Positions 5,756 through 6,450 of a stretch of DNA of 14,706 bases are shown here, piece after piece. The position numbers and the translations under genes were made by a program. Position 1 is the stretch's first letter. Every line of letters begins with the position of its first letter. The notes under the pieces were generated by a model. That model did not search any database. It saw only the letters and a program-made list of their open reading frames with translations, and was not told the DNA's origin. Origin of the DNA: a virus; UHGV virus genome UHGV-0056970; one strand, given 5' to 3'.

Positions 5756-5839
5756 ATGCAGTGCAATGACTATGAAGAGCGGCACATGCCTCCTTACAAG
5801 AGGCCTGAACCACCGCCAAAACCTGATGATTCAGACTGA
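5756..5839 (+). CDS. Possible small ORF (27 aa, Pro/Lys-rich: MQCNDYEERHMPPYKRPEPPPKPDDSD)
   Basis: Strong RBS AAGGAG, 5-nt spacer, ATG at 5756. Its stop TGA (5837-5839) lies inside the RBS (GAGGTG) of the next gene, suggesting coupling. In frame with the longer 5513 ORF, whose upstream part looks non-coding. Confidence 0.3.
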   Translation: MQCNDYEERHMPPYKRPEPPPKPDDSD

Positions 5840-5847
5840 GGTGAAAC

Positions 5848-6321
5848 ATGTCCCGGCATGACTTGATATTTGATATTCATTATTCGCATTACCTCGAAAA
5901 GATGTTTGCGACATTGACTGGCCGAATCGACCGGTTGATGACTTTCCTAATTATTTTGTCGGGATGTGGTGTTTTTGTTTCTATCACTGGCTACGTTTGG
6001 TTCGGCGCATTTATCGCTGCCTTATCGGTTAGCCAAGTTGTTTATCAATTCTCCCGCTCTTCAGGTATTGCAACTGAACAAGCTCGCTTATATCTGGAAC
6101 TTATCACCGACGAACCTTCTCTTACGGATGAGGAATTACTCGCGCGTTTTAAACATTTGCAAAACGCCGATTCAAAACCCTGGGGTTGCCTAGAATTACC
6201 AGCTCAGAAAAGAGCAACGATTGTTCTTGGCCTAACTGATACAACCAGGGAACTCAGCAAGCAAGAGGTGTTTGCCGCAAGGTTGGCTGGAGATCTACCG
6301 AGGAAAAATCCCCATGGTTGA
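5848..6321 (+). CDS. Hypothetical small membrane protein (2 TM helices, about 90-aa C-terminal soluble domain)
   Basis: 157 aa. RBS GAGGTG 6 nt before ATG. Two adjacent hydrophobic helices (LMTFLIILSGCGVFVSI; WFGAFIAALSVSQVV). Followed by an intrinsic terminator. Confidence 0.6.
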   Translation: MSRHDLIFDIHYSHYLEKMFATLTGRIDRLMTFLIILSGCGVFVSITGYVWFGAFIAALSVSQVVYQFSRSSGIATEQARLYLELITDEPSLTDEELLARFKHLQNADSKPWGCLELPAQKRATIVLGLTDTTRELSKQEVFAARLAGDLPRKNPHG

Positions 6322-6392
6322 AAGAGCTGGCGGTCATAAACCGGCTAACCCAAGACCTCCACAACCAGTTAAGCCAAAGCCTAAAGCTTGAT
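6315..6392 (+). CDS. Possible tiny overlapping ORF (25 aa, Pro/Lys-rich: MVERAGGHKPANPRPPQPVKPKPKA)
   Basis: ATG at 6315 overlaps the stop of the preceding gene (CCCATGGTTGA). Composition resembles the 27-aa ORF upstream. Could be a frameshifted C-terminal extension instead of a separate gene. Confidence 0.2.
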
Positions 6393-6420
6393 TGTTGATC
6401 GATATCCAGATTGTTAAAGA

Positions 6421-6450
6421 GCGAAGCGTCCTATGGGGCGCTTTTTTGTT
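6421..6450 (+). terminator. Rho-independent terminator after the plus-strand cassette
   Basis: GAAGCG-loop-CGCTT hairpin followed directly by TTTTTTG (GCGAAGCGTCCTATGGGGCGCTTTTTTG). Confidence 0.6.

Follow-up and report, generated by a model that had tools for sequence, protein, structure and literature searches.

In the window analyzed here, i.e., the whole stretch of 14,706 nucleotides (nt) from the virus genome UHGV-0056970, a gene for a two-helix membrane protein of 157 amino acids (aa) is flanked by two Pro-rich micropeptide genes that are under coding selection, and this arrangement points to an undescribed multi-part phage-exclusion module. The host element is a Klebsiella-type lambdoid prophage, and the locus corresponds to the position of sieB in phages lambda and P22. 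In the annotations, papers and family libraries searched, we met no description of the micro-open reading frames (micro-ORFs) or of the membrane-protein family; the slot that they occupy and its antisense RNA are already known from P22 and lambda, yet have no Rfam entry. The reading to which we give about an even chance is that the unit is a prophage moron in the sieB slot, acting in exclusion or abortive infection under the control of a sas-type antisense RNA, with micropeptides that partner a pore-type effector. The ORF and terminator scans delimited one compact plus-strand unit, which, together with the conserved elements around it, is composed as follows.

5658-5742, both strands: conserved sieB-type leader (plus strand), which is the locus of a sas-type antisense RNA on the minus strand.
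5722-5742, plus strand: 5′ arm of an inverted repeat, AATCTGGATATCCCCAACAAC, about 21 nt, just before the Shine-Dalgarno sequence (SD) of smORF1.
5756-5839, plus strand: small ORF 1 (smORF1), a 27-aa acidic Pro-rich micropeptide, MQCNDYEERHMPPYKRPEPPPKPDDSD; TGA at 5837-5839; SD AAGGAG at 5745-5750, with 5-nt spacing.
5848-6321, plus strand: 157-aa membrane protein gene (main ORF); SD GAGGTG at 5838-5843.
6314-6391, plus strand: smORF2, a 25-aa basic Pro-rich micropeptide, MVERAGGHKPANPRPPQPVKPKPKA; stop at 6389-6391; GAGGA 9 nt upstream.
6392-6412, plus strand: 3′ arm of the inverted repeat, TTGTTGATCGATATCCAGATT, imperfect, which begins right past the smORF2 stop.
6413-6450, plus strand: conserved 3′ element, GTTAAAGAGC, with the intrinsic terminator (terminator scan; stem-loop at 6423-6444, then a T-run).

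The main ORF starts 8 nt past the stop of smORF1, and its SD overlaps that stop codon. smORF2 in turn starts within the last codons of the main ORF, with an 8-nt overlap (ATGGTTGA); this overlap is limited to one subgroup of the related loci, and in most of them the ATG of smORF2 is found 4-16 nt past the main stop, with its own SD. The net charge is -3 for the smORF1 peptide and +5 for the smORF2 peptide. All the parts that an earlier, sequence-only reading of this DNA had listed, namely a 27-aa ORF with a strong ribosome-binding site, a 157-aa ORF with two transmembrane segments (2-TM), an overlapping 25-aa ORF and a terminator, are present in the sequence. The same reading had considered a programmed frameshift that joins the 157-aa and 25-aa frames. 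This idea was abandoned: in the homologous loci smORF2 starts independently, with an SD of its own, so that no frameshift is needed. A 108-aa ATG ORF (5513-5839), of which smORF1 is the in-frame 3′ end, was also rejected as a real gene, because other loci carry stops directly upstream of smORF1 and because this frame covers the conserved non-coding leader. No promoter for the cassette was identified in the promoter scan. The unit shows the features of a moron, i.e., its own terminator, an orientation opposite to that of the flanking minus-strand genes, and a frame shared with at least four unrelated cargos.

We then compared homologous loci, of which 48 came from an IMG/VR scan with a family alignment and 2 from a genome scan (loci are given below by L numbers). 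The ORF architecture and the SDs are kept in about 25 distinct loci, with protein identities of 38-100%. An upstream Pro-rich ORF of 26-45 aa, ending 3-15 nt before the main ATG, was present in all 29 enterobacterial-group loci examined, and a downstream Pro-rich ORF in 28 of these 29, in most cases with a separate ATG and SD. In three loci two or three copies of the motif described below lie downstream, which gives up to four copies in total. In one metagenomic locus (L035, ~3900-3990) the frame of smORF1 is one base off its SD-linked ATG, at an A-run; this register shift may reflect slippage, a faulty assembly or a pseudogene.

Selection on the encoded peptides was analyzed as the ratio of nonsynonymous to synonymous differences per site (pN/pS), obtained by summed Nei-Gojobori counts on codon alignments of 19 loci for smORF1 and 16 loci for smORF2. 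As observed for smORF1, pN/pS was 0.31 in frame and 1.6-1.8 in the shifted frames, and for smORF2 the values were 0.42 and 1.4-1.5; the main gene gave 0.40 in frame and 1.0-1.5 in the shifted frames. The synonymous sites of these alignments are near saturation (pS about 0.7), and therefore it is the amino-acid sequences, and not the nucleotides, that are conserved. smORF1 and smORF2 are genuine genes under protein-level selection. The view that the three ORFs form one coupled unit, which had been taken from the window sequence, is borne out by the conserved architecture, the conserved SDs and the coding selection on both micro-ORFs.

The two peptides have a motif in common, H-x-P-x3-R/K-P-x-P (examples are ERHMPPYKRPEPP, GGHKPANPRPPQP, PNHAPPFPRPPAP and GDHSPFAPRPVPRP), and because both carry it smORF1 and smORF2 are considered paralogous; the similarity of the peptides on the two sides of the membrane gene, remarked on before, is hence that of paralogues. 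In a six-frame translation of the retrieved loci (3.2 million residues), the strict form of the motif, H.P.{3}[RK]P.P, had 54 matches in the flanks of the 2-TM homologues and 6 matches elsewhere, of which 4 were distinct: two were copies of the cassette truncated at contig ends and two were chance matches. Among 11 loci of distant family members (24-37% identity to the window protein), 10 also have a Pro-rich micro-ORF upstream of the main gene, most with a His (MYLIHVDDSDKYHAQNRKTPPPPKKD, MKGYTDERTDKDSEKFHEQKRQIPQPPPSKNKD, MPGHVPREEQRGNHPRRPPPPQPKQ and MKLSASNAPTPQIPLSSPKVPERNHRSPLPVQPPKPRG are examples). The association between the micro-ORF and the 2-TM gene is an old one. It is found in the Fels-2 prophage of Salmonella LT2 (L189, NC_010463.1, ~30240-30810), where a Pro-rich micro-ORF (MSDSDNFHVLPRPAPAPKPEPGQDKK) precedes a 2-TM gene. 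In this record a 405-nt ORF, STM2733.1, is annotated on the opposite strand, and both the Fels-2 2-TM gene and its micro-ORF are unannotated; a literature search on STM2734 found nothing. The exact 27-aa and 25-aa peptides of the window were absent from a collection of 15 billion proteins, in which longer variants of 33-43 aa are called elsewhere as 'hypothetical' or 'uncharacterised' proteins. No Pro-rich micro-ORF was found beside the other cargos of the sieB-type leader, so that the micro-ORFs travel with the 2-TM gene and not with the slot, and distant 2-TM homologues retain the micro-ORF without the sieB-type leader.

Hydropathy analysis of the 157-aa protein revealed two adjacent hydrophobic segments, residues 30-47 and 49-66, with a tight turn between them. 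Its AlphaFold2 model is all-helical, with a long hairpin (helices 3-46, 50-91, 94-106, 113-126 and 138-147; predicted local distance difference test score 76.5), and the protein is thus modeled as a helical hairpin (30-66) followed by a helical C-terminal part that would be cytoplasmic. A C-terminal motif, W-[LF]-[AS]-G-[DE]-x-P, is conserved in the family and reads W-L-A-G-D-L-P in the window protein. The 157-aa protein recurs unchanged in 541 contigs, which are recorded as 'Klebsiella/Raoultella group'. Among family libraries, phrog_6315 (function unknown) matched it over its full length (E 1e-39), and Pfam, PADLOC and NCBIfam gave no match. When 1.84 billion representatives were searched with a profile, 259 clusters (at 50% identity) were obtained with E<=1e-3, and 141 with E<=1e-10; most of the family matches listed are of 150-180 aa, the named relatives are all 'hypothetical', and the family is spread over Klebsiella, Escherichia, Salmonella, Citrobacter, Enterobacter, Yersinia, Serratia and beyond. 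A second protein search for relatives added nothing.

When the AlphaFold2 model was compared with solved structures, only generic helical matches were obtained. In a Foldseek search of the predicted viral structures in BFVD, a comparison that had been proposed together with the idea that a 2-TM protein with a soluble tail resembles the membrane effectors of defense systems, about ten of the top 25 matches were SLATT or 'SMODS and SLOG-associating 2TM effector' proteins (E 0.26-1, probability up to 0.99, TM-score up to 0.57). We also scanned 48 family members against PADLOC and Pfam at relaxed thresholds. Eight of them matched PDLC00712, the PADLOC '2TM effector' of the cyclic oligonucleotide-based antiphage signaling system (CBASS), with a best E of 2.7e-4 and a collinear best alignment (residues 5-90 against profile positions 16-106 of 171). 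In the same scan three members matched RTasSLATT profiles, two matched Pfam SLATT_4 (E 0.041) and one DUF4231. The idea gains from these weak but repeated matches, and the 157-aa protein is, on the strength of profile and fold similarity, a probable but unproven remote member of the SLATT-like effector class. No cyclase (SMODS), SLOG or reverse-transcriptase partner was seen in the window or in the related loci inspected, where the neighbors are the micro-ORFs and phage regulatory genes; homologues lie beside phage immunity genes or defense genes. An identity with SieB was rejected, since hhalign gave a probability of 0.13% for the family profile against lambda SieB, and Pfam SieB matched neither the 157-aa protein nor, even at E<=10, any of 48 relatives.

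A leader of about 100 nt precedes smORF1 (5658-5742), and its DNA sequence is conserved even between loci whose proteins share 44% identity. A sensitive BLAST search with this leader matched lambda 34394-34464, immediately upstream of sieB, and further matches were in records in which the underlying feature is annotated SieB. A 31-nt block of the leader (GCCTGTCTTTTAACCACATCAGGCTCGGTGG) shows no difference between lambda, upstream of sieB, and relatives of the window locus. The P22 sas antisense RNA has 127 nt, and its sequence is published (PMC13397905, Table 2). Its reverse complement is identical to the lambda leader in 110 of 124 nt and to the window leader in 70 of 97 nt, in a collinear arrangement with the same elements. 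In P22, sas pairs with the sieB mRNA and diverts translation from the exclusion protein, so that the phage escapes its own SieB (PMC12197685, PMC7067206). The window sequence alone had led to the proposal that the unit is placed where lambdoid phages keep exclusion genes; its leader is now seen to be homologous to that of lambda and P22 sieB, i.e., to the antisense of sas.

The elements of the leader are a helix S1 (5658-5662/5676-5680), a helix S2 (5670-5673/5684-5687) that is pseudoknotted with S1, a hairpin 3 (5688-5692/5711-5715), and two CCCCAACAAC repeats, one in the loop of hairpin 3 (5700-5709) and the other at 5733-5742. The structure was analyzed in 40 distinct leaders, with 13 pairs in the three helices and with slid and shuffled controls. 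Pairing was observed in 93.3% of the cells and in 20-52% when the partners were slid, and two-sided changes were seen at 7 pairs vs 2.2 ± 1.0 in shuffles (0 of 500). These values argue, with moderate confidence and with low variation among the leaders, for a conserved secondary structure of three helices. Rfam gave no model for the leader, and none for the terminator or for the GC-rich stretches on either side. A put-type antiterminator of HK022 had been an early lead for the identity of the leader and was dropped: PMC9378689 gives no sequence to compare, and the leader proved to be of the sieB/sas type. In some phages two sieB/sas-type leader copies, one of them a variant, are found about 1 kb apart (L006 2901/3809, L011 3792/4764, L022 3761/4767 and L115 4584/5369), which suggests two tandem expression slots.

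At the other end of the cassette, about 45 nt around the terminator (6401-6447) are nearly invariant in DNA where the protein is only 44% identical, and variants of the terminator stem compensate each other (e.g., in L022 and L046). The inverted repeat pair is kept in most of 52 distinct combinations of leader and terminator, across different cargos, and in some of them both arms change together, as in L010 (ctggTtat/ataAccag) and in the SfIV-type loci; no inverted copy of the lambda repeat was found downstream of lambda sieB. The repeat could serve to pair the 5′ untranslated region of the cassette mRNA with its 3′ counterpart, or to form a duplex (for processing) in a leftward read-through RNA. 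An invertible or mobile element bounded by the 21-nt repeat found no support: all 90 cargos in the framed loci have the same orientation (51/51, 27/27 and 12/12 on the plus strand).

The cargos were surveyed in 121 IMG/VR loci retrieved by the leader pattern, 93 of which have the terminator within 4 kb. The cargo is a 151-aa soluble protein (like SfIV_36) with a 76-aa minus-strand ORF in 51 framed loci, a 171-aa protein in 27 and the 2-TM family in 12; lambda sieB is a fourth cargo of the leader slot, and the terminator element of the cassette also closes other cargo types. Hence the leader and the terminator delimit an exchangeable-cargo slot, and the frame that they form is present in 874 of 5426 complete E. 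coli genomes (about 16%). Of the alternative cargos, the commonest are the soluble protein, 144-151 aa in length and accompanied by a convergent ORF of 73-76 aa, and the 171-aa protein (L052, SfIV 27584-28460; L053, PhiR29); in E. coli records, one gene under the frame is named 'ECs1072 family phage-associated protein'. By their position, these alternative cargos may be regarded as candidate exclusion genes.

The slot lies opposite to the strand of the leftward early (PL) operon, between the PL-operon genes and the repressor gene, and a mechanism for an exclusion module at this place can be proposed. In the lysogen, the cassette would be transcribed from the sieB-type leader, with the translation of smORF1 coupled to that of the main gene via the stop codon that overlaps the main SD, and with smORF2 read from its overlap with the end of the main gene. 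The 157-aa product would be an inner-membrane protein, a divergent SLATT-like '2TM effector' of the pore-forming cell-suicide class, and the acidic smORF1 and basic smORF2 peptides would bind to it as regulatory, antidote-like partners that hold it inactive. A superinfecting phage would disturb this complex, so that the freed effector damages the membrane and the infection is aborted. During lytic growth of the resident prophage, or of a relative with the same leader, leftward transcription would yield a sas-type antisense RNA over the leader, which would silence the cassette and let 'self' escape. Several observations weigh against this reading. The 157-aa protein is without homology to lambda SieB (hhalign 0.1%), and conservation of the leader stops about 10 nt short of the smORF1 SD. 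Within the cassette, promoter prediction gave no minus-strand start for a sas-like RNA, so that the antisense RNA would have to arise by leftward read-through. No natural fusion between a Pro-rich peptide and the 2-TM protein was found among the 14 longer family members. In a variant that we consider quite unlikely, the micropeptides would be directed to the ribosome, either as arrest sequences or as tunnel binders similar to proline-rich antimicrobial peptides, and would link the state of the translation machinery, which is taken over by infecting phages, to the synthesis or release of the SLATT-like pore, which would result in a translation-surveillance type of abortive infection with self-exemption by the sas-type RNA.

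The resemblance to known systems is partial in each case. As in the sieB-esc-sas locus of P22 and lambda, a gene on the plus strand is enclosed, in antisense, by the leftward early operon and is close to the repressor gene; the leader of about 100 nt is homologous, with the same stems, two C-rich repeats and a complement that corresponds to the published P22 sas; and the cargo is a small membrane protein. In contrast, the 157-aa protein is not a SieB homologue, P22 sieB encodes the antidote Esc from an internal in-frame start whereas here there are separate Pro-rich micro-ORFs, and, unlike lambda sieB, this slot has a conserved terminator and a 5′/3′ inverted repeat. With the SLATT-like '2TM' effectors of CBASS and reverse-transcriptase (DRT) systems the protein has in common the size (~150-175 aa), an N-terminal helix, a transmembrane hairpin and a helical tail. 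The profile and fold matches to them are repeated but weak and below the family thresholds, and the profile search with the window protein itself gave none; the protein has no cyclase, SLOG or reverse-transcriptase partner, and its only conserved partners are the Pro-rich micropeptides. Leaders of the SecM, RAPP-type ApdA/ApdP and MgtL type also consist of a short Pro-rich ORF just upstream of a membrane-protein gene and translationally linked to it, but in the cassette peptides His and Arg positions are conserved and paralogous copies lie downstream of the regulated gene. The C-terminal arrest motif of the RAPP/RGPP-like class (PMC10951233, PMC12992588) is absent from the micropeptides, which carry RPEPP, RPPQP or RPPAP instead.

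It is rather unlikely that the micro-ORFs act in cis only and that their peptides are functionless, with slowing or stalling at the Pro-run, dependent on elongation factor P, tuning main translation by unmasking of the SD, and with smORF2 tuning the 3′ structure or the stability of the mRNA. Leader peptides of a regulatory kind, Pro-rich or arresting, are well established (PMC7897499, PMC10951233); smORF1 is Pro-rich, with PPP in many loci, lies immediately upstream of the main gene, and has a stop that overlaps the main SD, with which the Pro codons (CCACCGCC and similar) are predicted to pair in several loci; the smORF2 stop, in addition, abuts the 3′ arm of the inverted repeat. However, the conserved residues are not limited to Pro and include the His, the Arg/Lys-Pro, an aromatic residue and E-E-R-H, PPP itself is not conserved (PPK in L009 to L021), there is no RAPP or RGPP motif, and the paralogous copies downstream have no gene to regulate, with three or four copies in all in some loci. 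The folding z-scores at the junction of smORF1 and the main ORF were non-significant (-2 to +1), and an SD-sequestering hairpin at this junction was consequently rejected in spite of the suggestive pairing of the Pro codons. It is very unlikely that the roles are reversed, i.e., that the micropeptides are the active agents on a host or phage target such as the ribosome exit tunnel or DnaK, and that the membrane protein is an accessory, e.g., for immunity or anchoring. The ribosome exit tunnel or DnaK is the target of proline-rich antimicrobial peptides from insects and mammals, and the cassette peptides presumably share with oncocin, Bac7 and apidaecin the size of 20-30 residues and the PRP-type cores (we take PPFPRPPAP, ANPRPPQP and PPYKRPEPP to resemble those of the oncocin and Bac7 type); moreover, smORF2 is cationic, and strongly basic at +5, and the motif is modular and repeated. 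Against this, smORF1 is acidic, with a net charge of -3, the peptides are encoded by a prophage inside the bacterial cell and have no signal peptide, the antimicrobial peptides are not known to share the His-x-Pro with which the motif begins, and there was neither a database match nor a sequence match to solved chains, in a library of chains of >=20 residues. The peptides were, furthermore, never found without the 2-TM gene in the retrieved loci, and a constitutive ribosome inhibitor would be costly in a lysogen.

The cassette might also be a module of lysogenic conversion or membrane physiology unrelated to exclusion, e.g., for stress tolerance or envelope modification, which we regard as unlikely. 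The window protein has no match to a defense profile, and the morons of this region are diverse in role (PMC3594210); but the cassette is located in the sieB slot behind a sas-type leader, which is known for silencing an exclusion gene in the phage's own lytic growth, its protein has weak similarity to the SLATT/2TM effectors, and homologues lie near immunity regions and restriction or defense genes. Finally, that the small ORFs are chance frames in conserved untranslated regions is hardly credible. They are indeed very short and unannotated, and the exact peptides are missing from the 15-billion-protein collection, but selection is frame-specific, the starts and SDs are conserved and the motif is specific, and other pipelines call the variants of 33-43 aa as genes.

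The window represents the left end of the prophage, whose integration site is the tmRNA gene (ssrA), and the cassette is surrounded by the following features.

1-68, minus strand: 3′ tmRNA fragment, the left attachment site (Rfam tmRNA/tmRNA_permuted, E 2e-5 and 2.5e-4).
99-1010, minus strand: D12-class adenine methyltransferase (PADLOC PD-Lambda-5_B, full-length, E 2e-123).
1091-2824, minus strand: 577-aa AAA ATPase (phrog_3940; top PADLOC matches AriA-, PtuA- and GajA-like, E 1e-19).
2877-4043, minus strand: integrase.
4004-4222, minus strand: excisionase.
4251-5195, minus strand: 314-aa multi-pass membrane protein (phrog_12528, function unknown, E 1e-154; weak Csx27 match, 4e-5).
About 5200-5650: GC-rich stretch (55-62%) with no convincing ORF and no Rfam match.
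5587-5648, plus strand: long hairpin, GGAAGCGCACTCC ... GGAATGCGCTTTC, directly upstream of the leader (read from the sequence).
6450-6625: GC-rich non-coding stretch.
6626-6859, minus strand: 77-aa gene (phrog_12911).
7106-7738, minus strand: CI-type repressor.
To the right of the repressor: cro (plus strand), then replication genes.

The order of the genes is thus int, xis and the 314-aa gene (minus), the cassette (plus), the 77-aa gene and cI (minus), and cro (plus); in lambda, sieB is located between ral/orf28 and N. The methyltransferase and the AAA ATPase (99-2824) are likely, from their profile matches, to form a two-gene defense system between the attachment site and the integrase, and the 314-aa membrane protein gene, which adjoins the excisionase in an island of 30% GC, is probably another accessory gene. 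Positions 5406-5690 have unannotated counterparts in phages of Klebsiella and E. coli, with 88-94% identity. The hairpin at 5587-5648 is optional, being shared by only a subset of the homologous loci (L003, L008, L010, L026, L034 and L037), with compensatory differences between loci as judged by eye. The region 6450-6880 is an insertion relative to the near-identical loci L003 and L008, in which the terminator joins directly the sequence equivalent to window position ~6880. An 80-nt block that follows (6883-6964) is 83-99% identical, and mostly unannotated, in many temperate phages (SfII, SfIV, SfV, ST64B, SPN3UB, ZF40 and Yersinia YeP2); a promoter predicted on the minus strand (6992 to 6963, TTGACG-18-TATTAT) has this block directly downstream, and the block may be a leader of the leftward early transcript, e.g., an antitermination site.

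If the proposed reading is correct, a large unnamed family of prophage membrane proteins gains a conserved partner, micropeptides of 25-45 aa with a defined motif. The genes for such micropeptides are overlooked by standard annotation, and defense-system catalogues therefore miss this whole class of modules with two or three components. The sieB/sas leader and the conserved terminator constitute an exchangeable expression slot with at least four unrelated cargos, and each of these cargos would then be a candidate exclusion gene with a built-in self-exemption by antisense RNA. The module would, in addition, offer a tractable system on the micropeptide control of a small pore-type effector, for which Fels-2 (S. 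Typhimurium LT2) and Klebsiella prophages are available.

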